This document shows, in pieces, positions 11,395 through 62,987 of a stretch of 64,000 bases of DNA. Location of the stretch: positions 3,080,441-3,144,440 of the forward strand of contig CBDCTH010000012.1 of the NCBI GenBank assembly GCA_965222155.1, written 5' to 3'. Below the pieces are notes generated by a model. That model saw only the letters and a list, made by a program, of their open reading frames with translations. It was not told where the DNA came from and did not search any database. Within the stretch, counting starts at the first letter, position 1. Every line of letters begins with the position of its first letter. This stretch comes from Gammaproteobacteria bacterium. GTDB taxonomy: Bacteria > Pseudomonadota > Gammaproteobacteria > Eutrophobiales > Eutrophobiaceae. A program made the translations under genes and the position numbers.

Positions 11395-11463
11395 TTAAGC
11401 TAATCCAAATGTGATGATAGTGTATTCGTAGCTTTCAGCAAGATCAGTGGTCGCTTTGGATGA
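11395..11463 (-). pseudogene. Vestigial ParE/RelE-type toxin N-terminus (22 codons, no start codon)
   Basis: The frame reads SSKATTDLAESYEYTIITFGLA-stop, directly downstream of the ParD-like ORF. It resembles ParE N-termini (LSxxAxxDLxxIxxY...). Confidence 0.35.
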
Positions 11464-11467
11464 TAGA

Positions 11468-11644
11468 CTATAGGCGGCCATCGACTCCAAGTCGAGCTTC
11501 GATTTCCTCCATGATGTCACTGACTGTCTTATTGCTCACACCGCTATTCATGCCTTCCTGAATTGCGGCTTTGAGCGCCAGAAACCTGGAGTTATGCTTG
11601 TGGAGCGCGGTTTTGACAGTAGTTTGTTTACCTGCTTTTTTCAT
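11468..11644 (-). CDS. ParD-family antitoxin-like small ORF (58 aa, probably N-terminally truncated)
   Basis: My own translation: MKKAGKQTTVKTALHKHNSRFLALKAAIQEGMNSGVSNKTVSDIMEEIEARLGVDGRL. The ...LKAAIQEGxxSG... part matches the C-terminal half of ParD. Below the 60-aa track cutoff. Confidence 0.5.
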   Translation of the reverse strand: MKKAGKQTTVKTALHKHNSRFLALKAAIQEGMNSGVSNKTVSDIMEEIEARLGVDGRL

Positions 11645-11702
11645 AGAGTATCCTTATTTGACGTTTCAACCTGTTGATTTTTCGCCGGATTCTCCAGCGC
11701 TA

Positions 11703-12428
11703 TCAGTAAGGCGGTTCAGCCGGTCCGTCGTAGCCACAGACGCCTGTGCGCGGGGAGTTGAAGATACCCATCAGGCCACCGTATTCGTCGTGTTCACTAT
11801 GGGCTGCGGCGTCATCGCCGCAGACGAAGCCTTGCTCAACTTCGTCGTCGCTGTCGTAGCAGTCATGACATATCCACTGCGCGGGTTTGCTGCAAACATT
11901 GCATGGGGGTGGCTCGAAATTGTTACGCGCCATCAACGCAACAGCGTTTCCGGTTGTTGGCCCTCCGGTACGTTGTCCGACTACTTTGAGCGTTAACTCG
12001 GTAGTTGAACCAAAGTCATATTCGTAGTCAATCTCCAGGCCGGCCTTCAAGACCCGCTCTAGCTTGACATCCATTGACTTTTTGTCTTCTCCATAGTCAA
12101 ACAGTTTGGGGGTAATCTGTGTGTAACGCCGTCCCCGGATGGTGAAATCGCTCATATGACCACAACATTCGAGCCAAATCCAGCGCAAATAGTCGTCCAG
12201 GTCCGTTAATGTTGCGCGCCCACGTACTTCAAGTTGCAGCCAGTATCCCAGGTCGTACGCGTCCTGCACTTGAAGGTGATACTGCTTTTCGCGGCGCCCT
12301 CGTTCATTGGCCTGGCGTATTTTGTTCTGCCGTTGCGCGCAACTCTGCAAATGCCTGACCATGCGGCTTCGGGTTATCTCATTGTGACAATAATTGCAAA
12401 CGCCTTTGGTCTGTCTGCTACGCGCCAT
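11703..12428 (-). CDS. pRiA4b ORF-3-like (PRiA4_ORF3 / MM3350-like) domain protein with Cys-rich ends
   Basis: YHLQVQDAY..WLQLEVRGRATLTDLDDYLRWIWLECCGHMSDFTI resembles the PRiA4_ORF3 core. It is flanked by CNYCHNE...HLQSC and CNVCSKPAQWICHDC motifs. Confidence 0.65.
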   Translation of the reverse strand: MARSRQTKGVCNYCHNEITRSRMVRHLQSCAQRQNKIRQANERGRREKQYHLQVQDAYDLGYWLQLEVRGRATLTDLDDYLRWIWLECCGHMSDFTIRGRRYTQITPKLFDYGEDKKSMDVKLERVLKAGLEIDYEYDFGSTTELTLKVVGQRTGGPTTGNAVALMARNNFEPPPCNVCSKPAQWICHDCYDSDDEVEQGFVCGDDAAAHSEHDEYGGLMGIFNSPRTGVCGYDGPAEPPY

Positions 12429-12567
12429 ATATTCAGTTAAGCTGAACTGTGGTTATTTCCTGGTTAGTTTACAGATCATACGTCATACCCAGCAAATGAA
12501 GAAGCACTGTATTGCATCGATCTCAAAGAGATAAATCAGAGCTATGTAAGGTGTTACAGTTTCCCAA

Positions 12568-13356
12568 TCATGGCGATGAAATTCCGTTTTCGCTTATGTG
12601 TCCTACGCAAGGCGTCCAGGTAACTTCCGGCAGCCGCTCAAAGATAACATGCATGTGGCCATCGGAATCATCCATGCTTGGCATCGCCTCTTCTGCCTTA
12701 CGTAGGGCAAACTCGGTTAACTGAATGACCGCCTCGGCCTGGCCGTTCCTGAGTAGTGTTTCAACGGAATCGACGGCGGTCTCAACAGTTTTGGCATAAC
12801 CATAAGCAGCCTGATAATCGATGAAATATCCGGGAAGTATTGTCTCTTCGAGCGCCTTCTGCACGACTGAGATATTCGTATCTCCCCCAATATCGCGGGC
12901 GACCTTCAGTTGCAGTTGCCTGTACAGGCTTTGATCGTCCATTGCCTGTTCGACCAGCAGCTCAGCAAGCGTGGCGACGTCCTGTTTTTGTAACCAGGCA
13001 TGAATATCTTCTGCGCTAATTTCCTTGCGGGCTTTTTTCCGGGGAGGTCTCCGAGTGGATTTGTTATCGCCGGCAGCTTCAGTTCCGGTTTGCTCCAACA
13101 GCGCCAGCCCTACCGCCACGCAATGTTTGCAGAATACATAGTCCAGGCCATCTGGGCAACTGCATCCATAATCCAGTTCTCCGTTCTTTTCCCACAAATT
13201 CACCTGGTAATCCTGAGTGCCTGTCACTGTAGCGCTGATCCTTTCCCGGTATTTACGCAGGCTGGCTACCGCGCCGCCATGATAATATTCCTGGCCCCGC
13301 TGAAACCTGAGACTGTCTGTCAGGGAGCGCAAACGTTTTTCAGTAATCATGCTCAT
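12568..13356 (-). CDS. SWIM zinc-finger protein (possibly C-terminally truncated)
   Basis: SWIM signature CSCPDGLDYVFCKHCVAVGLAL, preceded by RGQEYYHGGAV... as in COG4279-type proteins. Confidence 0.7.
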   Translation of the reverse strand: MSMITEKRLRSLTDSLRFQRGQEYYHGGAVASLRKYRERISATVTGTQDYQVNLWEKNGELDYGCSCPDGLDYVFCKHCVAVGLALLEQTGTEAAGDNKSTRRPPRKKARKEISAEDIHAWLQKQDVATLAELLVEQAMDDQSLYRQLQLKVARDIGGDTNISVVQKALEETILPGYFIDYQAAYGYAKTVETAVDSVETLLRNGQAEAVIQLTEFALRKAEEAMPSMDDSDGHMHVIFERLPEVTWTPCVGHISENGISSP

Positions 13357-13695
13357 GGATATTCAAAGGATAACATCAGAGTGAATCATAAACTGCTCTG
13401 TAGCATTATCAAATCATCATCCAGGCCATGACGCAAGACGTCTCACTATCTATTTCCAGTTGCAGCTCCGTTGCTCGCGTTTTTCGGTACGGCCTTTCGC
13501 AATGCCTTATCAGATGAGATTTGAGGACTGAAGAAGGTGATGATTTCTTTCATTGATCTATCGGCCAATCAGGTATATTCGCAGCGTTTTCATATATGTT
13601 ATTTTCTGACACTGCCTGGAAGTTGGATAAAAGAAGAAAACATCCACCTGAACTTCTTTATAATATCAAAATTCAGAGGGTTGCCCCTTGCATTC

Positions 13696-14061
13696 ATGAT
13701 GAAAGAAAAAAAAGTGACCGGGATTACCCGGATTATCAAAGCCACGATATATTCCTACCGGGGACTGGTAACCTGTTTTAAAACCGAGGCCGCGTTTCGG
13801 CAGGAACTGGCCCTGGCGCTGGTGTTGGTGCCGCTTGGCCTGTGGCTGGGTAATTCCGGGATAGAGCGGGCATTGCTCGCAGGCAGTATCCTGCTGGTTC
13901 TGATAGTCGAATTATTGAATACCGGTGTCGAATACGTCGTTGATCGATTCGGGGGTGAAATTCACGAATTATCCGGCAAGGCAAAGGACATCGCATCCGC
14001 AGCAGTGTTTCTTGCCTTGTGCAACGTTGCCGTCGTGTGGGCCCTGGTCCTGTTTTTTTAA
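13696..14061 (+). CDS. dgkA: Diacylglycerol kinase
   Basis: 121 aa: TGITRIIKATIYSYRGLVTCFKTEAAFRQE...ELLNTGVEYVVDR...AKDIASAAV. Start taken at the internal atg 13696. Confidence 0.88.
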   Translation: MMKEKKVTGITRIIKATIYSYRGLVTCFKTEAAFRQELALALVLVPLGLWLGNSGIERALLAGSILLVLIVELLNTGVEYVVDRFGGEIHELSGKAKDIASAAVFLALCNVAVVWALVLFF

Positions 14062-14216
14062 TCTCGACCTGGTTCACACATTAAGACGAAGTTCAGCCAT
14101 TATGCTGTTTTACATCACTGAGTAAAATTACTCAATGATGTAAATAAAAATGCATTTAACCTGTTTTTCCAATCAGTTACACACACCTGACAGAAGATCT
14201 TTATTGAGGTATCCCC

Positions 14217-14705
14217 ATGAAACTAGCTGGCTCATGCCATTGCGGCGCAGTGAAGTTCAGCGTTAATTCCCCCCATCCGTATCCGTTCAATTTTTGCTAT
14301 TGCTGCATCTGCCGGAAGACGGCGGGAGGTGGTGGCTATGCTATCAATCTCGGCGCCGAGTTTGCGACGCTGGAGGTCAGCGGACGGGAAAATATCTCGG
14401 TGTATCGTGCCAGGATGAAAGATGAGGAGTCGGGAGAGTTCACGGAAAGCCCCGGCGAGCGTTCATTCTGCAGGACCTGTGCCAGTGCCCTGTGGGTGTG
14501 GGACCCGCGCTGGCCGCACCTGGTGCATCCGTTCGTATCGGTCGTCGACAGTGAATTGCCTGTTGCCCCAGAGCGTACCCACCTCATGCTGGACAGCAAG
14601 GTAGATTGGGTACAGGCAGACATCAGGGCTAACGACAAGACCTTCCCGCACTACCCGGAAGAGTCCCTGGCGGAGTGGCATGAACGCCTGGGCCTGGTGT
14701 GTTGA
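14217..14705 (+). CDS. GFA / CENP-V family Cys-rich protein
   Basis: GSCHCGAVKFSV...CYCCICRK...CRTCASALW is the typical GFA zinc-site pattern. Confidence 0.8.
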   Translation: MKLAGSCHCGAVKFSVNSPHPYPFNFCYCCICRKTAGGGGYAINLGAEFATLEVSGRENISVYRARMKDEESGEFTESPGERSFCRTCASALWVWDPRWPHLVHPFVSVVDSELPVAPERTHLMLDSKVDWVQADIRANDKTFPHYPEESLAEWHERLGLVC

Positions 14706-14715
14706 GAAATGGGGC

Positions 14716-38288: not shown

Positions 38289-38852
38289 ATGGATATTGGG
38301 GAACCGATAAAATCACTTGGCACAGTGGACATGGAACCATTGCGCGCACGCATCCTCGCCCAGGAAGAGTCCGCCTGGTATGAACAGAAACTGCGCCAGA
38401 ACGAATATGACGTTCACCGCTATACGGAATCCATCGTGCTGGTTTTTACCGATGGGTCCGGCTGGCCGAATATCGAAGTCAGCAAGCAGCCCGGTTGGGG
38501 GCGGCTGGTCGGGGAGGCCATGCCGTTGATGCACGGGATTATCGGCAGCTTTTATCCGGCCGGCGGTACCATAATCCGCGCCATGGCGGCGAAATTACTT
38601 GCCGGCGGGAAAATCAAGCCCCACCGGGATGCGCATCCGTCATTTCACTACAGTCACCGTATCCATGTTCCCATTACCACCAATCCCCGGGTCCGGTTCA
38701 TGCTCGACGGGCGCCCGTACCGGCTGGAGGTGGGGCAGGCCTACGAAATCAACAACCAGAAAGTACACAGCGTGATGAACAAGGGCACACAGGACAGGAT
38801 TACGTTTATCTTCGATTACGTGCCGCCCGGCGGCCATGCTACGGCGCAGTAA
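38289..38852 (+). CDS. Aspartyl/asparaginyl beta-hydroxylase-family (cupin) protein
   Basis: ...GGKIKPHRDAHPSFHYSHRIHVPITTNPRVRFMLDGRPYRLEVGQAYEINNQKVHSVMNKG..R..FIFDY matches the Asp_Arg_Hydrox pattern. Confidence 0.68.
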   Translation: MDIGEPIKSLGTVDMEPLRARILAQEESAWYEQKLRQNEYDVHRYTESIVLVFTDGSGWPNIEVSKQPGWGRLVGEAMPLMHGIIGSFYPAGGTIIRAMAAKLLAGGKIKPHRDAHPSFHYSHRIHVPITTNPRVRFMLDGRPYRLEVGQAYEINNQKVHSVMNKGTQDRITFIFDYVPPGGHATAQ

Positions 38853-40512: not shown

Positions 40513-40718
40513 CAGGGCAAACGCATACTTTTGAATTCAGATGTTTTTGCCCGATTCCGTCATTCTGGCGCAGGCCAGAATCCAGTGAATAACCCTTCAT
40601 TACCCTGAGCCTGCGCTGTTGTTTGACTGGATGCTGGCATTCGCCAGCATGACGGGCGGTGTTGTCCGGTTGGTTTCCTGTCGTCTGCAACAGAATCCAA
40701 AAGTATGCGGTTGCCCTG
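40513..40718. mobile_element. 206-bp MITE, copy 2 (10-bp target-site duplication)
   Basis: Same element as 36873-37078, with one mismatch in the left TIR. The TSD ataaggatgg is at 40503-40512 and 40719-40728. Confidence 0.85.
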
Positions 40719-40863
40719 ATAAGGATGGGACGCATTGATTTTTTATTCCGTGAACCGTTTCAATCTATGCTATGATGCATAATTTACTGCCGTTCTTCGA
40801 TGAAATCATTCTGATTATTTTATAACGTTATACAATTACGCGCCGAAGCTCGCGGATCTTGAA

Positions 40864-40938
40864 TGGGGCGTAGCCAAGTGGTAAGGCACAGGGTTTTGAT
40901 CCCTGCATTCCCAGGTTCGAATCCTGGCGCCCCAGCCA
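40864..40938 (+). tRNA. tRNA-Gln (anticodon UUG)
   Basis: Cloverleaf folded by hand. The acceptor tggggcg pairs with cgcccca. The anticodon stem caggg/ccctg encloses loop ttTTGat. The T-arm is ccagg-ttcgaat-cctgg, and the 3' end is an encoded CCA. Confidence 0.92.
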
Positions 40939-43598: not shown

Positions 43599-46500
43599 TT
43601 ATTCCAATGCAACAAGTGCTTGGATTTCCTTGTCTGTCAACTCTGTAATCCACTGCTCGCCGCTGGTTACTGTGAGATTTGCCAGGTCTTTTTTCCCCTG
43701 GATCATCGCATTAATCTTTTCCTCGAAAGTGTTTTCCACAATAAACCGATGCACCTGAACAGCCTGCTTTTGTCCTATTCGATAGGCGCGATCCGTTGCC
43801 TGTGCTTCTACCGCCGGATTCCACCAGAGATCATAGTGAATTACCTGGCTTGCCGCCGTGAGGTTGAGGCCTGTGCCACCCGCCTTCAATGACAAAACCA
43901 TGGCCCGGACCCTTGGGTCATGTTGAAACCTGTCTACCAGTTCATCGCGTTTTTTACGAGACAAGCCGCCGTGAAAGAAAGGCACGTCAATAGAAAACTT
44001 TTGTTTTAAGCTGTCAACCAGTAATTTTCCCATGCTGGCGTACTGGGTAAAAATCAGGACTTTTTCATTCGCATACAGCACTTCTTGCATGATTTCGACA
44101 AACATGGACAACTTGCCGGATTCCTCGATGCGGGCTTGATCATGGTTGAGAAATTGTGCGGGTGTATTGCAAATTTGCTTTAATGCATTAATCAGTTTGA
44201 AAATGATTCCCCTACGTTCAATATCCGTATCGCTGGATTTGAGATCAGCCATGATGGTATCAACCATACTTTGATATAAAGATGCCTGCTCTGTACTGAG
44301 TGTACAATAACGGTCACTTTCCACTTTATCCGGTAGATCATCGATAATGGATTTATCGCTCTTCAGGCGTCTGAGAATAAAAGGACCGGTCAGCTTACGG
44401 AATCTCTCCAAACAGGCTTGATCCCGATCTTTTTCAATCGGACTCGCCAGTGTTTCCTGAAACTTTTTCCGGGTGCCCAGATAACCTTTGTTGGTAAAGT
44501 CAAATACGCTCCAGTACTCCCTTAATCGGTTCTCAACAGGGGTGCCGCTCAGACCGATACAGTTGTCAGCCTTGAGTTTTTTGGTGGCCTTAGCCTGTTG
44601 GCTGTCCGGGTTCTTGATGTTCTGCGCTTCGTCGATGACCAGCGTTCGCCAATGTGGCTTGCCCAGGGTCGTACTGTCAGAGCGAACCACGCCATAGCTG
44701 GTCAGGATAACGTCGTGCGCGGTATCCAGTGAACGTTGATTACCGTGATAAACCTGCACTTTGAGCGTTGGCGCAAAACGTTCGATTTCTTTTCGCCAGT
44801 TGGTCAACAAAGACGTCGGAGCGACGACCAATGCCTTGTGCCTGGCCAATTGCCCCGTCTCTTTTTGACGCAGCAACAACGTGATTACTTGCAGGGTTTT
44901 ACCCAAGCCCATATCGTCTGCCAACAAGGACCCGAACCCGACACGAGCATTCTGTGCCAGCCACTCAAATCCGCGTTTTTGATAAGGACGCAGGTCAGCC
45001 CTCAGCCCTTCCGGCTCAGGTTCCGGCGTTGTCTGGAATAATCGTTCAAACAGTTGGCGGGCAGAGTCGCTCAAATCGACGTCGGCGCCATCAAGATGCC
45101 CGGAAAGCCCGGCCTGTAGCAATTGTATGCGCGAGAGAGATTTCGGTAAGCGACTTAGCTTCCTCAACAGTTGTTGTAATTTGTTGTCATCCAGCATCAC
45201 ATACTGGTCCTGGAACCTGATGAGACCTGAGGCGCCTTTCAGGAGTTGCTGAAATTTGCTGATGCTGATGCGCTGATCACCTAGCGCCACCTGCCAGTTG
45301 AAGTGCAACAATTCATCCAGGTTGAGATAGCTCACCGAAGCGCTTTGATTGCTGACGGAAAGCGACAAACTCAACTTCGGATAAATCAGGTTGCGTAAAC
45401 TCTTTGGCAGGGTCAATTGGATGCCAAGCATTTTCAGGGACGGCAGGATGTCCAGAAAAAACGGTGTGAACGCCTGTAGCGAGTAGGTAAGTTGTTCATT
45501 TACGGATGTTGTTTGATACAACCGTTCAATATCAGGGAAGTAATCCGCAAGTAACGCCAGGTCAGCCAGCACACTGACCTTAGCCTCTGACAAGGTGTTA
45601 TCCTTGGATAAATCGCCCAGGGAAAATATCCGGTGGTCGAGTTCAATTCGAAGATCAATACCCAGCAGCCCTGAATCCCGGTGCGCTTCGTTTCGCCCTG
45701 TCAGCTCCTCAACGAGCAAATGGAGCCGATGTTTTCGCTCTCCCAGCGTAAGGCGGCGCAACCAATGACGGATAACTTTGGGGTAAACAACAGTCTCGAA
45801 CTGGTTAAACAGACACGCTGAGTTGGTGAAGAACAATCGACAAATTTCTTCCTCCAACAGTTGAGCAGGCGCCGCATCCATGGCCTGCTCCATAAAAAAG
45901 CCAATGATAACGTTTAATGCCGTATTCACCTGCGTTTTACCATCTGCATATTGACACTGGGGCTGTTTCCGGTTTTGAAGTGCGTACCTGGACACAACAA
46001 GATCAGGCGGGCAAAGCGAATACAGTTGCTCCAGTATCTGTTTCACCGACCGGTCCAAAAGCGCAGGCTGCCAGTGGACCAAGGTATAATCATCTGCTTC
46101 CATAAAGACAGCGGGGATACAGGCCCGCTGCACAACCAGTTTGACCGCCAGGCGATATAACAACTGCCACATCAGCGCCTGGTGGAAGTCTCGCGCTTCT
46201 GCCGGGCTTAAGGTGCAACGCAGTCGCGCCAACATTGCCAGCCACTCGTCACGTTGATGCAAACTTTGCTCAGGACTCATACCTTGCACGGACAAAAACC
46301 GGCCGCTTGCCCCGACAATGAGTTGAGTGAGTGAAAACGTAGCGACCTCGATGGTATTTTCATCACTCGAATCCGCTGTTTTTTCAAATTGTCTGGCGAC
46401 GCGAGCCGTCCGTTTATAAAAATCAGCCAAGACTTGCCGGAAATCCTTGTGATAGAACAGAGGTTTTTCACTCAGAATCCCCAGAATACGATCGCCCAAA

Positions 46501-47141
46501 TCAGGAATCGTGGTGAGATCAAAAGATTCAAAGACAGGTTGTTCAGGTAATGCCTTGTGTTGTGCAACAGGCGCTTTTTGCCAGGCTGCGGATAGTTGCG
46601 GTGGGGAACTCATTTCCTGAATCGCGACGCCGGTCTGTTTTTCAATAGCTTTGGCCAAATTCATGTGGTGGAGTTGAAATACCAGGAATGGATTTTTATC
46701 AATTTCATTCGCGACCAGGTAAATGACCGCGGCGATGTGCTTACAAGGTATCGCCCAATCCGGACAGGAACAACTCGCTTTCATGTCACCCCAACTTTTC
46801 GGGAAGAGCGGAATGTTGTGATCGTCCATCAAGGTCAACATCTGTGCGGGCAACTGCCGGTTCAACAGCCTGGCTAAAATGGCCGGACTTTGGCTGACGG
46901 CGGTTAAAATCGAAGTTTGCTGCTGTTTGGAAAACGTGGGCAGGTGGATCTTGACTGTATAGGGCGCGGAGCGTCGTCCTTGCACGTTTGCTCGAATGGT
47001 GGCGCCTTGAAACCCGATGCCGGATACCGAACCATTACCGGCATAGCGCCGCCCACGAGGCAGTCGGTTGCCGTAGTCGATACCATTAAAGGCCGCAAGC
47101 CACTGCGTTCCCCACCAGGTCTGACCATACTGAACAGCCAT
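43599..47141 (-). CDS. SNF2-family helicase with an N-terminal SWIM zinc finger
   Basis: SWIM signature CSCPDWAIPCKHIAAVIYL near the N-terminus. SNF2 motifs LADDMGLGKTLQ and VIDEAQNIKN, and helicase-C ...LKAGGTGLNLTAASQVIHYDLWWNP..E.QA.DRAYRIGQ. ~1180 aa. Confidence 0.85.
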   Translation of the reverse strand: MAVQYGQTWWGTQWLAAFNGIDYGNRLPRGRRYAGNGSVSGIGFQGATIRANVQGRRSAPYTVKIHLPTFSKQQQTSILTAVSQSPAILARLLNRQLPAQMLTLMDDHNIPLFPKSWGDMKASCSCPDWAIPCKHIAAVIYLVANEIDKNPFLVFQLHHMNLAKAIEKQTGVAIQEMSSPPQLSAAWQKAPVAQHKALPEQPVFESFDLTTIPDLGDRILGILSEKPLFYHKDFRQVLADFYKRTARVARQFEKTADSSDENTIEVATFSLTQLIVGASGRFLSVQGMSPEQSLHQRDEWLAMLARLRCTLSPAEARDFHQALMWQLLYRLAVKLVVQRACIPAVFMEADDYTLVHWQPALLDRSVKQILEQLYSLCPPDLVVSRYALQNRKQPQCQYADGKTQVNTALNVIIGFFMEQAMDAAPAQLLEEEICRLFFTNSACLFNQFETVVYPKVIRHWLRRLTLGERKHRLHLLVEELTGRNEAHRDSGLLGIDLRIELDHRIFSLGDLSKDNTLSEAKVSVLADLALLADYFPDIERLYQTTSVNEQLTYSLQAFTPFFLDILPSLKMLGIQLTLPKSLRNLIYPKLSLSLSVSNQSASVSYLNLDELLHFNWQVALGDQRISISKFQQLLKGASGLIRFQDQYVMLDDNKLQQLLRKLSRLPKSLSRIQLLQAGLSGHLDGADVDLSDSARQLFERLFQTTPEPEPEGLRADLRPYQKRGFEWLAQNARVGFGSLLADDMGLGKTLQVITLLLRQKETGQLARHKALVVAPTSLLTNWRKEIERFAPTLKVQVYHGNQRSLDTAHDVILTSYGVVRSDSTTLGKPHWRTLVIDEAQNIKNPDSQQAKATKKLKADNCIGLSGTPVENRLREYWSVFDFTNKGYLGTRKKFQETLASPIEKDRDQACLERFRKLTGPFILRRLKSDKSIIDDLPDKVESDRYCTLSTEQASLYQSMVDTIMADLKSSDTDIERRGIIFKLINALKQICNTPAQFLNHDQARIEESGKLSMFVEIMQEVLYANEKVLIFTQYASMGKLLVDSLKQKFSIDVPFFHGGLSRKKRDELVDRFQHDPRVRAMVLSLKAGGTGLNLTAASQVIHYDLWWNPAVEAQATDRAYRIGQKQAVQVHRFIVENTFEEKINAMIQGKKDLANLTVTSGEQWITELTDKEIQALVALE

Positions 47142-47492
47142 AATTTTGATAGTGATCCCTGAAACCAACCAATACCGACTATTTTAATGGTTGAACAACT
47201 CGAAGCAACGAAATCCGTTCTATATGCGCCGGAAAAACTCTTCAACTTTTTATCCTGTATCCTATCCATCAATGTGAACCACATTCAGTCATCCACAAAT
47301 GTATTTATCCAAGAGATTGTTTCCCACTATCTTATTATGTCTGCTACTCTCGACCTGTAGTGACAGAGGGCAACTGTAGCAAGGCATTGATACCTGTTGC
47401 GACGTTTTGACCACACTTTCAGTCACACCTGTGTTGATTTGAGTATGCTTGTGCGCCAAAGGGCTATGATACGCCCGACGTGTAAATAAAAA

Positions 47493-48584
47493 ATGGGCTT
47501 CAAATGCGGGATCGTCGGTTTGCCCAACGTGGGTAAATCCACTTTGTTCAATGCTTTGACCAACGCCGGGGTCAGCGCCGAAAACTATCCATTCTGCACC
47601 ATTGAACCCAATATCGGCGTGGTTCCCGTCCCCGATTCCCGTTTGCAGGCAATCGCCCAGCTAGTCAGGCCGGAACGTGTTGTGCCCACCCACGTGGAAT
47701 TCGTCGACATCGCCGGCCTGGTCACAGGCGCATCAAAAGGAGAAGGACTGGGTAACAAGTTTCTTGGGCATATCCGCGAGACGCACGCTCTTGCCCAGGT
47801 GTTGCGTTGCTTTGAGGATGATAATGTCGCTCATGTCAACGGCAGGATAGACCCGCTTGCCGACCTGGACGTGATCAATACGGAACTGTGCCTGGCCGAC
47901 CTGGAGACCCTGCAGCGGGCTTCACAGAAGGCGGAGAAGGCTGCAAAAACTGCTGACAAGCAGGCCTTGGAACAGTGCCGGTTGCTGGCCGCCCTGGCTG
48001 CGCATATCGATACGGGCGCGCCGGCAAGGACACTGCCTCCGGGACGCGCCGAACGGGGCTTGGCGCGGGAACTGGGCCTACTGACGGAAAAACCGGTTCT
48101 GAATATCGCCAACGTGGAGGAAACCGGCATCACCTCCAACAAGTGGCTGGCGCAACTGGCGCGCCGCTCCGAAGCAGACGGCGCCAGGCTGATTACCGTA
48201 TCCGCTGCAATCGAGATGGAAATCAGCGAACTTGACGAGCAGGGTAAAAGTGAGTTTTTACGAGACCTGGGCTTGTCCGAACCCGGCCTGCACCGGTTGA
48301 TCCGGGCAGGTTATGAGTTGCTTGATCTACACACTTTTTTCACGATGACACCCCGCGAAGTCCGGGCCTGGACCATCAGGAAAGGGACTAGCGCGCCCCA
48401 GGCTGCCGGGGTCATCCATACGGATTTCGAGAAGGGGTTCATTCGCGCCGAAGTTATAGCCTATGACGATTTCATAGAGCGCCAAGGCGAGCAGGGCGCA
48501 AAAAACGCCGGCAAGTGGCGCCTGGAAGGAAGGGAGTACATTGTCATGGATGGTGACGTTATATTATTTCGTTTCAACGTCTGA
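47493..48584 (+). CDS. ychF: Redox-regulated ATPase YchF
   Basis: MGFKCGIVGLPNVGKSTLFNALT...; 363 aa with a TGS-like C-terminus. Confidence 0.95.
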   Translation: MGFKCGIVGLPNVGKSTLFNALTNAGVSAENYPFCTIEPNIGVVPVPDSRLQAIAQLVRPERVVPTHVEFVDIAGLVTGASKGEGLGNKFLGHIRETHALAQVLRCFEDDNVAHVNGRIDPLADLDVINTELCLADLETLQRASQKAEKAAKTADKQALEQCRLLAALAAHIDTGAPARTLPPGRAERGLARELGLLTEKPVLNIANVEETGITSNKWLAQLARRSEADGARLITVSAAIEMEISELDEQGKSEFLRDLGLSEPGLHRLIRAGYELLDLHTFFTMTPREVRAWTIRKGTSAPQAAGVIHTDFEKGFIRAEVIAYDDFIERQGEQGAKNAGKWRLEGREYIVMDGDVILFRFNV

Positions 48585-48704
48585 TACGGTAGCCAGAACT
48601 ACTACGTCCAAGCCCATCCGGATAGTTACTTGCTTTTTTAGTTTAGCCGCAAATGGGTTTTTTCGGGATTTCAGCTTCGAGAGATCGTATTCTTTTTTCA
48701 TCAT
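48564..48704 (-). pseudogene. BrnA-like antitoxin remnant (46 codons, C-terminally truncated; overlaps the ychF 3' end)
   Basis: My own translation: MMKKEYDLSKLKSRKNPFAAKLKKQVTIRMGLDVVVLATVSDVETK-stop. The N-terminus matches BrnA-type antitoxins (MKKEYDFSK...K.VTIRLD.DV...). There is an ATGA overlap with the preceding ORF. Confidence 0.45.
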
Positions 48705-48853
48705 TTTTGGACATTGTAGAATGTGGTTTCGGACTTTGTCGCTTTGCGGGCAGATATGATTCGGATCAATTCAGTTTCGAGTTTGTTCATCCAACGCCTA
48801 AAGGCAGCCTCATAATGGGAGTCCTTGTGTTTGTACGTCGACTCTTTCCTCAT
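48701..48853 (-). pseudogene. BrnT-like toxin remnant (50 aa retaining the C-terminal signature)
   Basis: ...ELIRIISARKATKSETTFYNVQK-stop matches the BrnT C-terminal IRIISARKATKKE..FY motif. An upstream piece in another frame (LEFIGAGRPFLKKQVDVQVHYFD, ~48900-48990) suggests a frameshifted N-terminus. Confidence 0.45.
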
Positions 48854-49110
48854 CCCACCGCTGTCCCACGCCCCTTTTCATCGACAGTAGTCCTTGATAC
48901 ACACCTGAATAATAGTGCTGTAAACATGATCAAAATAATGAACCTGTACATCTACCTGTTTCTTTAAAAATGGCCTTCCTGCCCCTATAAATTCGAGTAT
49001 CCGGCATCTGTCCTGATCACATTTGGTGTCGCTAATTCAGAACCTGCGCTGAAGACGCTGTCGTTTCAGGGCGGACTCCGGCATGGTGTAGCTCGGGGAC
49101 CGAAATCCCA

Positions 49111-52100
49111 TCAAACAATAAAGTCCGTTGCATCCAGGCTGGCCATAGCAAAGTCCGCCAGCAGGATCGTGCCACCGCCGCTGTCGGTGAGGTCAAGCGC
49201 CACACCGTCTGTCGTGGTCGTGGTGGTGAGGTTGTCAATGCCTGCCAGCCCGAAGGCCGTCAGGTCAATGCGGTCCACGCCGTCGGTGAAGTCCGTCACG
49301 GTGTCCTGCCCCTCCCCGGGGGCCACCACGAACACGTCGGCGCCCGGGCCACCCACCAACCGGTCGTCTCCCGCAGCGCCGGTGAGGCGGTCCCTCCCCT
49401 GCCCGCCGTAGAGCCGGTCGTTGCCCGGCCCACCGTCCAGCCGGTCATCGCCGCCGCCCGGCCCGCCGTACAGGGTGTCGTTGCCGGCGCCACCGTCGAT
49501 GACGTTATCCCGGCGGTCCCCGGCCAGCACGTCGTCGTGGGCAGAGCCGCTCAGGTGCTCGACATCGGGCAGGGATTCGGTCTGCTCAACACCGTCACTA
49601 TCGGTCCAGGCGACGTCAACTTTGTAAGGGAAGGTATCACCGGTCGCATCGCCACCCGTGGCCGAGAGGTTGTGCAGGCGCACGTCAACTTTGTAAGGGA
49701 AGGTATCACCGGTCGCATCGCCACCCGTGGCCGAGAGGTTGTGCAGGCGCACCGTGACACCGGTGGGGGAATGGGCCCAGGAAGCCGTGTCATGCCCGCT
49801 GTTGCCAACCAGGCGGTCCGCGCCCGGCCCGCCGATTAATATGTCATTGCCGGCGCTGCCCCAGAGGAAATCATTGCCGGCGCGTCCCTCCAGACGATTG
49901 GCCGTCGTGTTGCCGATGATTGTGTCATTGCCGGAGCCGGCGATGAAGTGTTCAATCACCGTCCCCCGGGCGATGACCAGACTGCCGACCAGACCGTAGA
50001 CGTCCGAGATGCCTTCAGGACGCAAGTCGACTCGCTGGTCAGCCGTATCCGTGCGCAGGTCGAGCGTATCGCTGCCGCCGTTGTCGTAGAGGGTCAGTGC
50101 GACCGATTGGCTAGGCTGTAATGGGGTGAAACTCGCCTCGGTGCGGCTGCCGGTGTTCTCGTAGTAGTTCAGGGTGCCGTCCTCCTCACCCATGACCAGG
50201 TCCAGGTCGCCGTCGTTGTCCAAGTCGGCAAAGGTTGGGGCGCTGTTACTATCCACATCGATGCCATCCAGGGGATTGTCAACGCCGGTGCGCTTTGTGA
50301 AGCCCGGCTGACTGCGGCTGCCAGTGTTCTCGAAGTAGTTCAGGATACCGTTCCCCTCACCCACGACCAGGTCCAGGTCGCCGTCGTTGTCCAGGTCGGC
50401 AAAGGTTGGGTTGCTGTGAGTATCCACATCGATACCATCCAGGGGATTGTCAACGCCGGTACGCTCTGTAAAGTCCGGCTGACTGCGGCTGCCGGTGTTC
50501 TCGTAGTAGTTCAGGATACCGTCCCGCTCACCCACGACCAGGTCCAGATCACCATCGTCGTCCAAGTCGGCAAAGGTTGGCACACTGAGCCAACCCACAT
50601 CGATACCAGCCAAGGGATCGGCAGCGCCAGTGCGTTCTGTGAAGCCCAGCTGACTGCGGCTGCCGGTGTTCTCATAGTAGTGCAGGGTGTCGTACCAATC
50701 ACCCACGACCAGGTCCAGATCACCATCGTCGTCCAGGTCGGCAAAGGTGGAGGTACTGTACCTACCCGTATTGATACCATCCAGGGGATCGGCAGCGCCA
50801 GTGCGTTCTGTGAAGCCCGGTTGACTGCGGCTGCCGGTGTCCTCGTAGTAGTACAGGGGGCCGTAATACTCACCCACGACCAGGTCCAGGTCGCCGTCAT
50901 TGTCCAGGTCAGCCAAAGTTGGCCTGCTAAGATTACCCACATCTATACCAGCGAAGGGATTTAACTCACCGGTCCAGAGTGAGAAGATCTGACCAGGGTA
51001 GCCGTCCACGTTAGAGTGATAGCCATAGACGGTGTCGCCGAGGTTGATATCAGTGGGCGTGCCATAGAGATTCTGAATGGCGATGATGTCCGCAATCATC
51101 GGCGTGGCAGGGGTAACTCTGCTGGCCTCAATATAGGTGTTCCACTCCTGGTTGAAGTAGGACATCACTGACGCTTGCTGAGAGTCGTTCAGGAATGCGT
51201 TGTCAACCCCGTAGATAGTACTGAGTATCGCTCCATCATCGGCGTACCTTGGGTAGGGTCCCGAGTGCCCGAGGCCAAGGGCATGGCCGATTTCGTGGAC
51301 GTAGACATAGGCATGGGTGATGCCTGGGTTAATCGTGGCATGGAGAGGGAGCCAGTCTTTCGATATGTTGACATGCGAAGAGATAATCAAGTACGTGCCG
51401 TCATCTGAGGGTGTCCTCCTGGTTGCTCTGGCATGGGCACCGTCCTCTTCGTCGTCGAAGGTAATGTGCGCATCACCGTCCACGAACTCGAAACCGATGC
51501 CGGTGACGGAGGTCCAGACCTCCAGGGCCCAGCGAGCGAGTTGCTGACCCGCAGGTGTCAGGGCGGTGATGTCAGCGGTCAAAGTACCGCCGGGTTCAAC
51601 GTCGAAGGCGCGGCGCGCCCAGAAGCCATCGGTCAGATAATTGGCAATCTCGTCATAGGTGCCCTCGGGGGTCGTGTTCTCAACGACTGACACTTCGTAG
51701 TCCCAAACGTCGGTATTGTCATCCCCACCTTCTACCTTGAGGTAATACGTGCCGGTAGCCGACACCCGATGAATATCAATCACAGCATCAGAACCGTAAC
51801 TGGAAACCTTGGACAAGATGTTGTCTCCGCTCGAGTCCAAGAGCGAAAGATGGAGCCGGGTGTCCTTGGCCGCCGCGATGCTTGCAATACCGAACCTGTA
51901 AATCATCCCGGCGGTCAGCTCGATGCGGACCCAATCCACATCTCCAGTCTGGCTCCCATCTTCATTGCTGGTGGGGTTTAATGCCCCTTGGAAGATAGCG
52001 CCGACGGCCATCGTATACTGGGTATCGACACCAGCAACCGCATCGCCGTTGTCTTCTTTCAGGGAAGAATATGGGTTGAAATCTCCCTCGGTACGGGTGC

Positions 52101-53628: not shown

Positions 53629-54897
53629 TTAATTGTATAAAAACCCTTCATAGACAAAGGCGCTGCTGATTTTTTCGCAGTCGGGTTCCGATACTCCGGC
53701 CTGGCGGGCTGTTTCGTGCCATGTACTCTTGATTTGTTTTTGCATGTCATCCAAGAGTCGTGCAGCGCCATCTTTTTCAAGCAGGAAACGGTTTGATTGA
53801 GACAGCAGGTTTGTCGCGTTGGCGCGCCGGCCGGCATCCCCGCAAATTAATGCCAGGTCGCGTCGTTCTATACTGACCGGCGTGAATGGAGTCAGATCAT
53901 AAGCAGGAGACAGTTGCCAGTCATATTCTGCGGCGATAACGGCGTGATTACGTGGATGATCATCAATATTGGAGATTAATGCATTAAAACACATACGCCG
54001 AAACAATTCTTCGGCATCCTCTCTGGGCGTTGCAGACAATCGGCGTAACTCTTCTGCCAACACAGGGTATGACCACTTGCCACGGGAGGTGTGAGTATCT
54101 TCAGCGCGCAGCAAGGTCAAGGCGCTGAGCATGCGGGCGCGAGTATAGCCTTTCCCGGTTTTCTCCCGGTCGAAACGTTTGACGAGCAACACATCCTGTT
54201 TTCCAACTTGAACAACAGTACTTGAGGCTGTCGTCAAGCCACAGGCCCGGGCAAGCATCAGCATGGCATGTTCCACCCGCGCATTGTTCCATTTATCATC
54301 ATCACGATTAAACTTTGCGATCCATAATCCATCATTATCTTCGACAACGGTCTTGGGTCGCGCCCCTCCCATGGAGGTGCCGATCAACATCAGGTTATAG
54401 ACCTGTTCCTTATTTGGCTCATCAGGGAGTGGTTCACCATTTATAACGGCCATAGCGATTTTTTGCAGGTGCGCCAGGTCAATTGTTTGATTAAACTCAG
54501 GCGCTATAGCTGGTGGAGTCAGCTTCAAGCCAAAACTCAGGGCGCCCGCTCGATCATCCGGCGCATGGAGTAAATAGTCCATTTCACTCAATTCCGGTTT
54601 TCCCGCCTGCCGTTCGAGCACCTGCCGTCCCCAGTGACCCGGACCGGCGTCCTGAAATGCGCCAAACACGCCTTTTAATGCGCGTGTTTCATAGACACGC
54701 TCAGACAGTTTCAACTCGACAGGGTCAATCGGCACCTTGTCCGGTCGGGCCAGGTAGCTTCTGCCGTACACAAACAACCCGCCAGGCAAACCCGATTTAT
54801 CAGGTTGGACGACGAATTTACCCGCAGTAACGGGTATTGTCTCGCCTGGCAAGGTGATATAGACAAAACACTCGGTTTGATTGAATTCAGAAATCAT
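53629..54897 (-). CDS. hipA: HipA-family serine/threonine kinase toxin
   Basis: 422 aa. The N-terminal HipA-coupling-like region reads CFVYITLPGETIPVTAGKF...YGRSYL. The C-terminal kinase core has ...GGARPK... and ...NIDDHPRNHAV. Confidence 0.86.
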   Translation of the reverse strand: MISEFNQTECFVYITLPGETIPVTAGKFVVQPDKSGLPGGLFVYGRSYLARPDKVPIDPVELKLSERVYETRALKGVFGAFQDAGPGHWGRQVLERQAGKPELSEMDYLLHAPDDRAGALSFGLKLTPPAIAPEFNQTIDLAHLQKIAMAVINGEPLPDEPNKEQVYNLMLIGTSMGGARPKTVVEDNDGLWIAKFNRDDDKWNNARVEHAMLMLARACGLTTASSTVVQVGKQDVLLVKRFDREKTGKGYTRARMLSALTLLRAEDTHTSRGKWSYPVLAEELRRLSATPREDAEELFRRMCFNALISNIDDHPRNHAVIAAEYDWQLSPAYDLTPFTPVSIERRDLALICGDAGRRANATNLLSQSNRFLLEKDGAARLLDDMQKQIKSTWHETARQAGVSEPDCEKISSAFVYEGFLYN

Positions 54898-55228
54898 TAT
54901 CCAGTTTATTTATATTGCGTGCACGATGTCGCTCGTTTCCGCTCAGGTAGGCAAGGCCCGTATCGTCTTTGTTGGGGTCTGCCAACTCCACTGCAGGGTC
55001 CAACAGGTCATAAGCCCACAGCAGAGCGATATAGACGCCGATCCCAGTTGATATCCTGCCTTGTTCCGCGGCGCGTATTGCGCGCGTCCCTGCGCCGATT
55101 TTCTCCGCCACCTGCTCAATGCTCAGGTTACGTCGCAAACGCGCGGTACGCAGGTTGGCGCCAATCCGTTTGATGGTTTGCTCGACCGGATAAGGCGGGG
55201 CTGCTGTGAGGGCATTTCGTGCTGACAT
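54887..55228 (-). CDS. hipB: HipB-like XRE-family antitoxin
   Basis: HTH segment IGANLRTARLRRNLSIEQVAEKIGAGTRAIRAAEQG. Overlaps the hipA start by 11 nt. Confidence 0.75.
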   Translation of the reverse strand: MSARNALTAAPPYPVEQTIKRIGANLRTARLRRNLSIEQVAEKIGAGTRAIRAAEQGRISTGIGVYIALLWAYDLLDPAVELADPNKDDTGLAYLSGNERHRARNINKLDNDF

Positions 55229-57822: not shown

Positions 57823-57839
57823 TCTCAGGGATATTTATT

Positions 57840-58634: not shown

Positions 58635-58637
58635 GAG

Positions 58638-59030: not shown

Positions 59031-59086
59031 GTTCCTGTCAGGTCTGGCAAGGGCATTGAAAAATCTTCAGATCACCCATTCAGGCA

Positions 59087-59836: not shown

Positions 59837-59967
59837 TTATTTCAGCTCCCGATGATTTTGCCGACAGAAGGTTTTGGGGTCTGTTGTGGAGTGACTAACG
59901 CCAGAGCCTGTGCAGTTGTAAGCAGGGGGACGAGCGCGGGACGGGCCAGGGCCTGCCCCGGCAGCCG

Positions 59968-60603
59968 TCATTCCCCATAGGTTTTGAATTTATCCAGGTT
60001 GACGTTCATTTCTGCCTCATCCAGCAGCACGGGTGGTCCGTACATGCGGCTGAACAGGTATTGTCTGGCCAGTTCCTCTACGAGTTGCGCCATTTTGAAG
60101 GCGGCGTCCACGTCCTTGCCCAGCGCAATCACCCCGTGATTAGCGAGCAGGCAGGCCTGGCGGCCCGCTAATGCCGCCAGGGCGTGGTCGGATAATTCCT
60201 GGGTACCGTAAGTAGCGTACTCGGCGCAGCGAATGGAAGAACCGCCTACACCGGCGACCATGTAGTGAAACGCGGGCAGGTCCTGGCGGGTACAGGCCAA
60301 CGCGGTGGCGCAGGGTGAATGGGTATGGACAATGGCATCTATATCCGTCCGTTGTGCATAGATATCCTGATGAAAGCGCCATTCACTCGATGGTTTCAGA
60401 TCACCCACAGCCCGGTTGCCGTGCAAGTCCATGCTGACGATATGCGCAGGCGTTAACAACTCATAACCCACCCCGGTAGGCGTAATCAGGTAGCCTTGAT
60501 CAGTCCTGGCGCTGAGGTTGCCGGCCGTGCCTGTGCCGAGCTGATTTTTTTGCAAAGACCGGGCAGCGGCTATCAGGGCTTCGCGTAAACTTGAATGATC
60601 CAT
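59968..60603 (-). CDS. Class II aldolase/adducin-family protein
   Basis: GTAGNLSAR...ITPTGV...VHTHSP.ATA... motifs. Start taken at MDHSSLREAL. Confidence 0.8.
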   Translation of the reverse strand: MDHSSLREALIAAARSLQKNQLGTGTAGNLSARTDQGYLITPTGVGYELLTPAHIVSMDLHGNRAVGDLKPSSEWRFHQDIYAQRTDIDAIVHTHSPCATALACTRQDLPAFHYMVAGVGGSSIRCAEYATYGTQELSDHALAALAGRQACLLANHGVIALGKDVDAAFKMAQLVEELARQYLFSRMYGPPVLLDEAEMNVNLDKFKTYGE

Positions 60604-60685
60604 GAGCGAATAATATATTATCCTGGTCAAAGTTTCCCTTTAACTCATTAATCGAAACCGCGTATGATAGGACGGTGGTGATGAC

Positions 60686-61462
60686 GTGAATAACATGATT
60701 CGGCAGTTCAGCGCATTTCTCCTGTGTTTTTGTCTGGCCGCCAGTGCATGTCCTGACGACTTGTTACAGCCCTTTTCCGCGCACCGGGTGGTTGACCTGA
60801 CCCATGCCTTGCACAAGGATATGCCGTTCTGGCCGGGAACCGCGCCGTTCGTGATCGAGCGGCTGGCTGATTATGACAAGGGCTATCGTATGCACCGGTT
60901 TTCGCTCTGGGAAAATATCGGGACCCACGTTGATGCGCCTGCGCATTTTATCGAAGGAAAACAATCCGTTAATGAACTGGACCTGAATGACCTGGTCGCA
61001 CCCGTTGTAGTCATCAAGGTACAGGACAAGGTCGCACGGGAGCCTGACTATCAATTATCCGTTGAGGACATACTATTGTGGGAGCAACGGAACGGCCGTA
61101 TTCAACCTGGCAGCCTGGTAGTCATGAACACGGGATGGTATAAAAAGTTTCATGAACCGCAAGCCTATGTCAACCAGGATGAGGCAGGCGTGCTGCATTT
61201 CCCCGGGTTTTCCGTTGCCACCGCGCGGTTACTTGTGGAACGGGACGTTGCCGGGATAGGCATCGATACCCTGAGCCTGGACCCGGGTAACGATTTAAGC
61301 TTTCCCGTGCACAAGATCATGCTGGGGGCAGGTAAATACCAGGTCGAAAACATGAATAACCTGGATGCCTTGCCCGTTAAGGGCGCGGTTGCCGTTATCG
61401 GCGTGCTGCCGGTAACAGACGCTTCCCAGGCGCAGGCGAGAATATTTGCGTTTATGGAATGA
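60686..61462 (+). CDS. Putative cyclase / kynurenine-formamidase-like family protein with a signal peptide
   Basis: ...DLTH.L...MP.WPG.......G....HVDAPAHF... pattern and an N-terminal hydrophobic leader. Confidence 0.7.
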   Translation: MNNMIRQFSAFLLCFCLAASACPDDLLQPFSAHRVVDLTHALHKDMPFWPGTAPFVIERLADYDKGYRMHRFSLWENIGTHVDAPAHFIEGKQSVNELDLNDLVAPVVVIKVQDKVAREPDYQLSVEDILLWEQRNGRIQPGSLVVMNTGWYKKFHEPQAYVNQDEAGVLHFPGFSVATARLLVERDVAGIGIDTLSLDPGNDLSFPVHKIMLGAGKYQVENMNNLDALPVKGAVAVIGVLPVTDASQAQARIFAFME

Positions 61463-61463
61463 G

Positions 61464-62384
61464 ATGGCGCCTCAATTACAAAAGCGCAAACAGGGAACGG
61501 CTACAAGCGCATTCGGAACACCTGGAAGAATCAGCCATGATTCCTCAAAATTTTACAGTGCCAGGCTTTATGAAGGATTGGATAGCGGGGGAAAAGTAAA
61601 CTATGTTGAGAATAGTATTCCTCAGGGGTATTTGAACAGAATCTTCTGTAAATCAAGTGAGGTGATGGACGAACTGCCTGATAACAGCGTTCACCTGATG
61701 ATAACATCTCCACCATATAACGTTTCAAAAGAGTACGATGAGGATTTAAGTCTTGATGAGTATCTGGCATTGCTCAATGCCGTTTGGCAGGAGACCTATC
61801 GGGTACTGGTTCCCGGCGGTCGGGCCTGTGTTAACGTGGCGAATCTTGGACGCAAGCCGTATATCCCGTTACACAGTTATATCATTGAAGGAATGCAGAA
61901 CATCGGTTTTCTGATGCGCGGGGAAATTCTCTGGAATAAGGGTTCCAGTGCCAGTCCGTCCACTGCCTGGGGCAGTTGGAAGTCCGCAGCAAACCCGGTG
62001 TTGAGAGATGTTCACGAGTACATCCTAGTCTTTTCCAAGGATTCATTTTCAAGAAAAAAGGGAGATAAAGAAAATACAATCGAGAAGGAGGGGTTTCTCG
62101 AATGGACCAAGAGCGTTTGGGACTTCCCGGCGGTATCGGCAAAAAAAATCGGCCATCCGGCGCCGTTCCCGGAAGAATTACCGCACCGGTTGATTCAGTT
62201 ATACTCGTTCAAGGATGATGTAATTCTTGACCCGTTTGCCGGCAGCGGGACTGTATGCCTGTCTGCTTTAAAGGATAAAAGGAATTACGTGGCCTATGAC
62301 ATCGATCCGGCATATATCAAACTGGCTGAAACAAGAATTTCCGCTTACAGGGACCAGTTTGATCTCTTTGCTGGTAGAAAATAA
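61464..62384 (+). CDS. Beta-class (N6-adenine or N4-cytosine) DNA methyltransferase, no cognate nuclease seen
   Basis: The catalytic motif IV LMITSPPYN precedes the SAM motif I ILDPFAGSGTV near the C-terminus, which is the beta-class order. Starts 1 nt after the cyclase stop. Confidence 0.8.
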   Translation: MAPQLQKRKQGTATSAFGTPGRISHDSSKFYSARLYEGLDSGGKVNYVENSIPQGYLNRIFCKSSEVMDELPDNSVHLMITSPPYNVSKEYDEDLSLDEYLALLNAVWQETYRVLVPGGRACVNVANLGRKPYIPLHSYIIEGMQNIGFLMRGEILWNKGSSASPSTAWGSWKSAANPVLRDVHEYILVFSKDSFSRKKGDKENTIEKEGFLEWTKSVWDFPAVSAKKIGHPAPFPEELPHRLIQLYSFKDDVILDPFAGSGTVCLSALKDKRNYVAYDIDPAYIKLAETRISAYRDQFDLFAGRK

Positions 62385-62440
62385 TAAGGAACTATTTTCA
62401 CAAGTGTCCAGGTTCAGAAGCATGCGAAACTGTTCATTGT

Positions 62441-62731
62441 CTAGCCGGCTTTTTTAAGCGGCAGGATTTTTTCGTGAGTTTGCATCGAATGCCACAGATC
62501 CCGGTTTTTCTGCAGGTTTAACCAGAAATCTGCCCCGGTATTTAATGCTTCACCGAATGCCAGCGCAGAATCGGCAGAAACGCCTCTTTTGCCGTTAATG
62601 ATCTCATTGAGCCGTGCATAGGTCCAGCCAAGGTGAACCGCAAATTCCTTCTGGCTGACACCAAGAGGTTTCAAAAACTCTTCCAGGAGCATTTCTCCGG
62701 GATGTGTCGGAGGTCTGTTTTTGGGCAGCAT
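62441..62731 (-). CDS. higA: HigA-family antitoxin (XRE HTH)
   Basis: PTHPGEMLLEEFLKPLGVSQKEFAVHLGWTYARLNEIINGKRGVSADSALAFGEALNTGADFWLNLQ is canonical HigA. Confidence 0.85.
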   Translation of the reverse strand: MLPKNRPPTHPGEMLLEEFLKPLGVSQKEFAVHLGWTYARLNEIINGKRGVSADSALAFGEALNTGADFWLNLQKNRDLWHSMQTHEKILPLKKAG

Positions 62732-62748
62732 TTTTTATCTCAAAATAG

Positions 62749-62820
62749 CTATTTGTGGTAGTCGGTTATTCCGATGGCATTTTCGGTGTAACTCGACCGG
62801 TATCTTGCGGGAATAACGAC
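62749..62820 (-). pseudogene. Vestigial HigB toxin C-terminus (23 codons behind an in-frame stop)
   Basis: My own translation: VVIPARYRSSYTENAIGITDYHK-stop, directly upstream of higA. It resembles the HigB ending ...F....G.A.DV..DYH and is preceded by tag at 62824-62826. Confidence 0.4.
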
Positions 62821-62987
62821 TATCTACTCCATCATAGATATCTTTTGTTATCCTGTCCCTTATATTCCTTATCATTGATTGAACATATCGAATATCGATA
62901 TATAAGTCAAATAAATATTAATGTCGCATAATCTGGTTAGTAGGGTAATCTTAACGCATCATAAGCGTGTCAAGATTCAGTTCGGTT

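Follow-up and report, generated by a model that had tools for sequence, protein, structure and literature searches.

In Escherichia coli the chromosomal ccdO157 locus reportedly acquires inactive toxin alleles while its antitoxin is kept, which Mine et al. (in Genetics, 2009) are said to have read as a selfish element being lost where selection is weak or absent. The anti-addiction module, an antitoxin which neutralises incoming toxins, is said to be a concept of Saavedra De Bast et al. from 2008, and orphan antitoxins have reportedly been described in Klebsiella (PMC7192599). For chromosomal type II toxin-antitoxin (TA) modules a two-step decay model was published by Belot, Payelleville, Jurenas, Rocha and Van Melderen (Mol Biol Evol 2026; PMC13617665), in which the Photorhabdus pseudogenes comprised 185 toxin-only, 186 both-gene and 8 antitoxin-only cases, and strain TT01 had 80 predicted TA systems. 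Inactive toxin mutants are also described in a review as a route of chromosomal TA decay (PMC7167474). Here we analysed a window, by which we mean the whole 64-kb stretch G000:C12:3080441-3144440 (contig C12 of genome G000), from an uncultured gammaproteobacterial genus. It carries five TA loci, namely hipBA, hicAB, higBA, parDE and brnTA, all of which are real TA modules or remnants of them, one intact and four decaying. Very probably they are independently acquired type II modules at different stages of normal chromosomal erosion, in which the toxin goes first. The finding is real but ordinary; the erosion path is already published.

The host genome has 4.55 Mb in 12 contigs, with 53% G+C, 100% completeness and 7.3% contamination. 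The window belongs to the core chromosome (rpmE, an iron ABC transporter, hemA-prfA, tRNA-Gln-prs-rplY-pth, ychF, rpe-trpGDC and queG), and its TA material was found in the gaps separating the core operons. All five loci listed in the initial annotation exist at or near the positions given there. They resemble canonical HicAB, HigBA (HigB-like PF05015 / HigA TIGR02607), ParDE, BrnTA and HipBA in gene order and size, in frames that overlap or abut, and in their domain matches, but four of the five are pseudogenised. In direct profile searches HigA and the joined HicA halves scored above cut-offs and HicB and HipA gave matches, whereas the ParD and BrnT remnants fell below them and the ParE and HigB remnants gave no match. 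Most of the fragments were too short for scoring, so they were identified through intact paralogues and orthologues. A Pfam scan of all 45 non-overlapped window open reading frames (ORFs) of 45-200 aa found no TA genes besides HicB, HigA and HipB, and the family searches gave no PIN, PemK, ParE or HigB-like match inside the window.

The lesions of hicA, higB, parDE and brnTA were mapped at base resolution by comparison with intact orthologues or paralogues, and for three of the four broken loci (hicAB, higBA and parDE) intact orthologues exist in congeners. In hicAB the toxin is split by a miniature inverted-repeat transposable element (MITE) and the antitoxin is intact, just as first described. 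The element is flanked by an exact 10-bp duplication, ATAGCATTCT, at 36863-36872 and 37079-37088. Single hicA halves are each below the Pfam threshold; joined, they make an open HicA of 70 aa directly upstream of hicB, with a PF07927 (HicA_toxin) score of 30.9 bits against a cut-off of 27. The site is uninterrupted in four congeners (G024, G005, G010 and G003), and HicA is a complete 70-aa ORF in G024 and G005. As assembled, hicA is interrupted in G003 by a stop codon in frame at about codon 27 and in G010 by a one-base insertion immediately after the ATG (frameshift at codon 2), single-base lesions which may be assembly errors. Counted in this way, hicA is broken in three of the five species carrying hicAB. 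HicB has 141 aa in all five genomes, among them the three with broken hicA, and the ratio of non-synonymous to synonymous substitution rates (dN/dS) of hicB is 0.10-0.20 regardless of the state of hicA. Its PF15919 match covers residues 5-65, with weak helix-turn-helix (HTH) matches at residues 77-134. The promoter-like site ahead of hicA is conserved, and so is the palindrome there, a likely operator, in five congeners. A terminator-like hairpin lies within the MITE, upstream of hicB.

About 28 near-full copies of the MITE, with 95-99% identity, were found across the genome, and the element is active or recently active. A second copy in the window (40513-40721, 97% identical) is located 3.4 kb downstream of the hicA copy, and both are within a variable islet bounded by tRNA-Gln (40864-40938). 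On the other side of hicAB, the region 35800-36630 contains an IS5-like transposase fragment (…VDTTVQEKAVSYPTDSNRTDD…, 36404-36577), and its part 35800-36158 shows 97% identity to C12:1540359-1540717, matches all congeners at 76-89% and has no Rfam match. After hicB, the region 37606-38852 encodes a 158-aa ORF without Pfam match and a 187-aa Asp/Asn beta-hydroxylase-like cupin. These ORFs match G026 in three blocks with extra G026 DNA between them, which suggests rearrangement or deletion also at this place.

In higBA, a dead toxin beside an intact HigA was correctly proposed, but the description of the toxin as 23 codons behind a stop was not accurate, because the remnant keeps its own start codon and runs natively up to an internal deletion. 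The 46-codon remnant ORF has no Pfam match. In congener G026, a higA gene with 95% identity is preceded by an intact HigB of 97 aa, and over its first ~35 residues this HigB agrees with the window ORF. DNA alignment of the remnant to G026 showed one internal deletion (BLAST gap 169 nt vs 2 nt), and the last six native codons (ITDYHK, stop) survive out of frame past it. Intact higBA is also present in G022 and G025, and in G006 at least the C-terminal 53 residues of HigB are present ahead of the contig end. HigA showed 90-96% aa identity with its orthologues in five congeners, with dN/dS of 0.02-0.16 in all pairs. The spot between a DNA methylase gene and queG, where higBA is located, is merely 27 bp in G026. 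At the same spot G007 has higA without a recognisable higB, and the two orphan copies of G000 and G007 gave dN=0.018, dS=0.43 and dN/dS 0.04. G007 retains ~30 nt of the higB 3' end which are missing in G000, but is without the 5' part kept by G000, and so the two lesions are independent. The higB remnant has dN/dS of 0.09-0.34, compared with 0.10-0.45 among intact copies. It is no more diverged than the intact copies, and therefore its loss may be recent.

In parDE both partners are damaged. ParD is short, as had been noted, and it is ParD-like only in its C-terminal half; the ribbon-helix-helix (RHH) DNA-binding N-terminus is gone and unrelated sequence stands in its place. The TIGR02606 match covers only profile positions 36-69 (E=3.4e-4, 20.6 bits vs cut-off 46.2). 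ParE had been read as 22 codons without a start, but an ATG is present at 11481 and is followed by 28 codons; the remnant is too short for the profile and gave no PF05016 match. An intact paralogue is located at C4:421377-421953, and the ParD remnant shows 63% aa identity to the C-terminus of its ParD and the ParE remnant 65% to the N-terminus of its ParE (E=7e-6). Homology to this paralogue and to the G026 orthologue is limited to the stretch from about parD codon 38 through about parE codon 27, with the homology end of the parE remnant at about 11497 in the DNA alignment. In G026, the closest relative, parDE is intact, with a ParE at least 96 aa long, and occupies the same site between an ABC ATPase gene and a PRiA4_ORF3-like gene; intact copies also occur in G027, G007 and G025. 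The parDE origin of the fragments is thereby set, by syntenic orthology with G026 and by the 63-65% identity to the C4 pair. Compared with G026, the parE remnant has 3 non-synonymous and 8 synonymous changes.

At the same site, G030 (G030:C3:326900-329600, L101 ~1650-1900) carries a central parDE remnant strikingly similar to that of the window. Here parD starts natively but has lost about codons 6-33 (the RHH domain) from its interior, and parE breaks off after codon 31; this copy was eroded independently of the one in the window. Between G000 and G030 there are 2 non-synonymous and 9 synonymous changes in the parD C-terminal part and 9 and 8 in the parE N-terminal part, a difference which is not significant. 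Adjoining the parDE remnant (11703-13356) are genes for a 241-aa PRiA4_ORF3-like protein with a BED-type zinc finger and a 262-aa SWIM zinc-finger protein, and a large SNF2/SWIM-like gene is at 43599-47168. Such genes are typical mobile- or defence-associated passengers.

In brnTA the proposed truncation of both toxin and antitoxin was found to be right. The brnT remnant scored 19.3 bits against PF04365 (cut-off 34.5), and the weak PF14384 match of brnA covers only positions 24-46. With four intact BrnT paralogues as queries, tblastn recovered the brnT remnant at E=7e-6 to 2e-4, and with two intact BrnA paralogues it recovered the brnA remnant at E=3e-4 and 5e-4, for residues 1-41 only. Order and overlap of the two remnants are as in intact pairs, and the brnA remnant ORF extends into the 3' end of ychF. 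No DNA homologous to the brnTA locus was found adjoining ychF in the congeners. Two further candidates are not relied on: a weak, stop-ridden trace of the brnT N-terminus (48857-48756, E=0.48), and a further brnA piece (LPYQTL…, 48592-48554, E 0.4-1) which overlaps the conserved ychF end. A repeat at 48869-49200, which starts where the brnT remnant fades, covers the 3' end and downstream region of a 1308-aa FG-GAP/calcium-binding repeat gene; it recurs at C12:167492-167822 (96%) and C12:983564, with shorter copies elsewhere.

The hipBA pair is apparently intact by its matches to HipA_C, Couple_hipA and HTH HipB, in agreement with the first description. HipA contains GGARPK, DDHPRN and YDL, which we take to be the P-loop-like motif, the catalytic loop and the YDL motif, respectively. 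The features of the five loci are collected in Table 1.

Table 1. Toxin-antitoxin features of the window (positions counted from the first letter of the window).
Locus	Feature	Position	Strand	Evidence and remarks
parDE	parE remnant	11395..11481	-	28 codons and stop; ~70 C-terminal codons deleted
parDE	parD remnant, 58-aa ORF	11468..11644	-	ParD only at residues ~20-58 (~11468-11606), the C-terminal toxin-binding half
hicAB	promoter-like site and palindrome	36706..36734	+	TTGACC, 17-nt spacer, GATACT enclosing the perfect palindrome ATCGAACA-TTTT-TGTTCGAT; consensus scan; putative
hicAB	hicA 5' part, codons 1-44	36742..36872	+	collinear with intact 70-aa HicA of G024 and G005
hicAB	MITE, 206 bp	36873..37078		21-bp terminal inverted repeats (CAGGGCAACCGCATACTTTTG)
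hicAB	hicA 3' part, last ~26 codons and stop	37079..37170	+	PF07927 match, profile positions 39-58; orthologue alignment
hicAB	hicB antitoxin, 141 aa, full length	37174..37599	+	PF15919, 33.6 bits
brnTA	brnA remnant	48600..48704	-	first ~35-41 codons, remainder lost; weak PF14384 match
brnTA	brnT remnant	48701..48781	-	only last ~22 codons (…LIRIISARKATKSETTFY…) recognisable; PF04365 positions 62-77
hipBA	hipA, 422 aa, apparently intact putative kinase toxin	53629..54897	-	HipA_C 163 bits, profile positions 1-213; Couple_hipA 28.5 bits
hipBA	hipB, 113 aa, HTH antitoxin	54887..55228	-	HTH_31 32.3 bits and HTH_3; 11-nt overlap with hipA
higBA	higA antitoxin, 96 aa, intact	62441..62731	-	TIGR02607 equivalog, 94.3 bits vs cut-off 47.7
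higBA	higB remnant	62735..62875	-	ATG at 62875 and ~35 native codons, then ~167-bp deletion; aligned to 97-aa HigB of G026
higBA	promoter-like site	62882..62910	-	TTGACT, 17-nt spacer, TATGTT with ATATCGATATTCGATAT palindrome; conserved with G026; putative

Specific destruction of the toxin had been proposed for four loci. It holds for two of the four decayed ones, hicA and higB, and fails for parDE and brnTA because there the antitoxins are truncated too; antitoxin-only damage was seen in none. The mutational mechanisms do differ, as had been suggested (MITE insertion, internal deletion and flanking deletions). The proposed pattern of a lost toxin and a kept antitoxin thus stood in part: it is not the case in parDE and brnTA, but wherever a single partner is broken, in the window, among the degraded loci examined genome-wide and in the congeners, it is always the toxin.

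For the whole genome, seven Pfam toxin families were searched with curated cut-offs. Matches above cut-off numbered 15 for ParE (four with internal stops), 12 for HicA (one), 10 for HigB-like (none, one frameshifted), 4 for BrnT (none), 53 for PIN (one, and three more of half length), 12 for HipA_C (none) and 7 for PemK (none). Full-length open matches amounted to 100 (~93 unique) across the seven families, and 94 of these 100 have a same-strand ORF adjacent in the partner position, two of the six exceptions being false negatives of this crude rule. Among 18 HigA loci, 11 have HigB (nine clear, two divergent), five have intact HigA with HigB broken or absent (the window, C10:2530 with a decapitated higB, C12:452676, C12:1638625 and C12:27965), two are HigA remnants, and none has an intact HigB beside a broken HigA. 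Fifteen other degraded toxins were inspected: six have an intact-looking antitoxin, five are bare remnants, three are ambiguous and one turned out on inspection to be an intact PIN-domain ORF. Taking together the degraded loci examined, 12 are broken in the toxin only, 9 in both genes and none in the antitoxin only. The half-length PIN ORFs C12:2769870 and C12:1199445 and a 292-aa HipA_C protein (C4:286587) were left out of these counts as ambiguous.

In the half-PIN loci (C12:2769870-2770016 and C12:1199445-1199633), only the C-terminal PIN half is present in ORFs of 78-115 aa, with a Phd/YefM-like ORF after and not before it. They could be parallel decay or an unrecognised short variant, and the 292-aa HipA_C protein likewise could be a real short variant. 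Several TA loci have identical scores across the contig pairs C7/C10, C1/C12 and C4/C12, for example PIN at C7:4376 and C10:27753, C1:15648 and C12:30802, and C4:79985 and C12:3444100. Overlapping haplotigs or a co-binned strain seem to be present in the assembly, in line with its 7.3% contamination. Across the 4.55 Mb the profile census found at least 125 loci derived from toxins (~1.8 per 64 kb), and it detected three in the window (Poisson P ~0.26); the five found by hand give P ~0.03, but with a denominator that misses such short remnants. TA loci are not clearly clustered in the window above chance, and we do not claim enrichment.

Toxin-first erosion very probably proceeded as follows. 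The five modules occupy intergenic or variable places that separate housekeeping operons, and hipBA represents the starting stage, with the pair intact. At the next stage the toxin would be inactivated and the antitoxin kept with its promoter and operator, as in hicA by the MITE insertion and in higB by the out-of-frame internal deletion. Later deletions from both sides would then spare only the middle of the operon, as in parDE and brnTA. A cell that lost its labile antitoxin with the stable toxin still active would be killed or arrested, so only toxin-first routes would survive, and after inactivation of the toxin the antitoxin would be free to decay. Since antitoxin-first loss would be lethal by this addiction property, a toxin-first asymmetry is expected without special selection against toxins. 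It is the order of events and the neutrality of the process that we infer; lesions and intact orthologues were seen directly. The remnants show no sign of long neutral drift, considering the dN/dS of higB and the hicA halves which are still open when joined, and this suggests recent events.

Several points weigh against this reading. Genes are called intact here solely for their full-length open frame and domain matches, and toxin activity is predicted from sequence. The assembly resembles a metagenome-assembled genome (MAG) and has 7.3% contamination. The census is crude, does not include short remnants such as the window ParE and HigB pieces, and is inflated by about seven loci duplicated between contigs. 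Moreover, the toxin lesions recur independently in congeners (hicA in three of five species, higB twice at one site, parE in G000 and G030), a recurrence that could also stem from a fitness cost of these particular toxins.

The antitoxins left behind might instead have been domesticated. HigA and HicB, perhaps also the ParD C-terminal stub, would then act against the toxins of plasmids and phages or as transcription factors, as the initial annotation had also suggested for its orphan antitoxins; we consider this unlikely. It would agree with higA being present in both G000 and G007 at one methylase/queG site, beside different higB lesions and at dN/dS 0.04, with the retained promoters and predicted operator palindromes of higBA and hicAB, with a full-length hicB in all five congeners, three of them with broken hicA, and with the independent retention of the ParD C-terminal half in G000 and G030. 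However, the low dN/dS may date from the period of the complete pair: the higB remnant without excess divergence suggests a recent deletion, and as the losses may be recent, the constraint on the antitoxins may be inherited from the intact state. The counts behind dN/dS on remnants and orphans are too small to tell recent loss from a selected orphan. Furthermore, a close paralogous toxin which HigA or HicB could neutralise is missing from the genome, their nearest antitoxin paralogues showing 47% and 38% identity, and the terminator-like MITE hairpin stands upstream of hicB. Judged on these sequences, it is quite unlikely that HigA and HicB serve as anti-addiction or regulatory proteins and that the ParD stubs of G000 and G030 are perhaps minimal toxin-binding "mini-antitoxins".

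Selection against active toxins was the original explanation, by which toxins are costly here and any toxin-destroying allele is favoured, whatever its mechanism. The toxins of the window were indeed hit by differing mechanisms, and the same toxins were independently damaged in congeners (hicA by nonsense in G003 and by frameshift in G010, higB lost in G007, parE truncated in G030). But this genome retains ~93-100 full-length toxin genes with partners, so it is not purging its toxins, the closest relatives retain intact orthologues, and of the four decayed loci two have lost their antitoxin as well. That losing the antitoxin first would be lethal is enough to predict the asymmetry, and no cost is required. 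Such selection is therefore not needed, fits poorly, and we regard it as very unlikely. That the lesions arose as artefacts when a metagenome-derived genome was sequenced or assembled is hardly credible in spite of the 7.3% contamination, the TA loci duplicated between contigs (C7/C10, C1/C12, C4/C12) and a G010 hicA frameshift possibly due to long-read error, because those in the window are of large size and clear structure (a 206-bp element whose 10-bp target duplication is perfect, a deletion of 167 bp, and deletions of several hundred bp bordered by unrelated sequence) and none is a homopolymer indel.

With toxin-first erosion as the preferred reading, the window offers a clear example from nature of a published path in a TA-rich and MITE-rich genus, with a MITE among the inactivating agents and with little import beyond annotation. 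In an annotation, the small ORFs at 11395-11644, 48564-48853 and 62735-62875 are best given as pseudogene fragments, hicA as interrupted, and higA and hicB as orphan antitoxins. Should selection turn out to act on these orphans, it would have a bearing on the anti-addiction hypothesis.

Compared with ccdO157, the loci are alike in being chromosomal TA loci with an inactive toxin and a retained antitoxin; ccdO157 is a single locus followed across strains of one species with functional assays, whereas here there are five loci of other families. Like anti-addiction modules, HigA and HicB are without a functional cognate toxin and keep their own predicted promoter and operator, and neutralisation of incoming toxins is a feature of the concept. 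The resemblance with Photorhabdus (PMC13617665) lies in the TA-rich genome, the loci in variable spots between core genes, the frequent toxin truncation and the independent events in related species. The present genus differs in being known only from MAGs and in having a MITE insertion as one lesion, and in all three comparisons our side is known from sequence alone. In the order toxin-only, both and antitoxin-only, the counts are 185/186/8 for Photorhabdus and 12/9/0 here.

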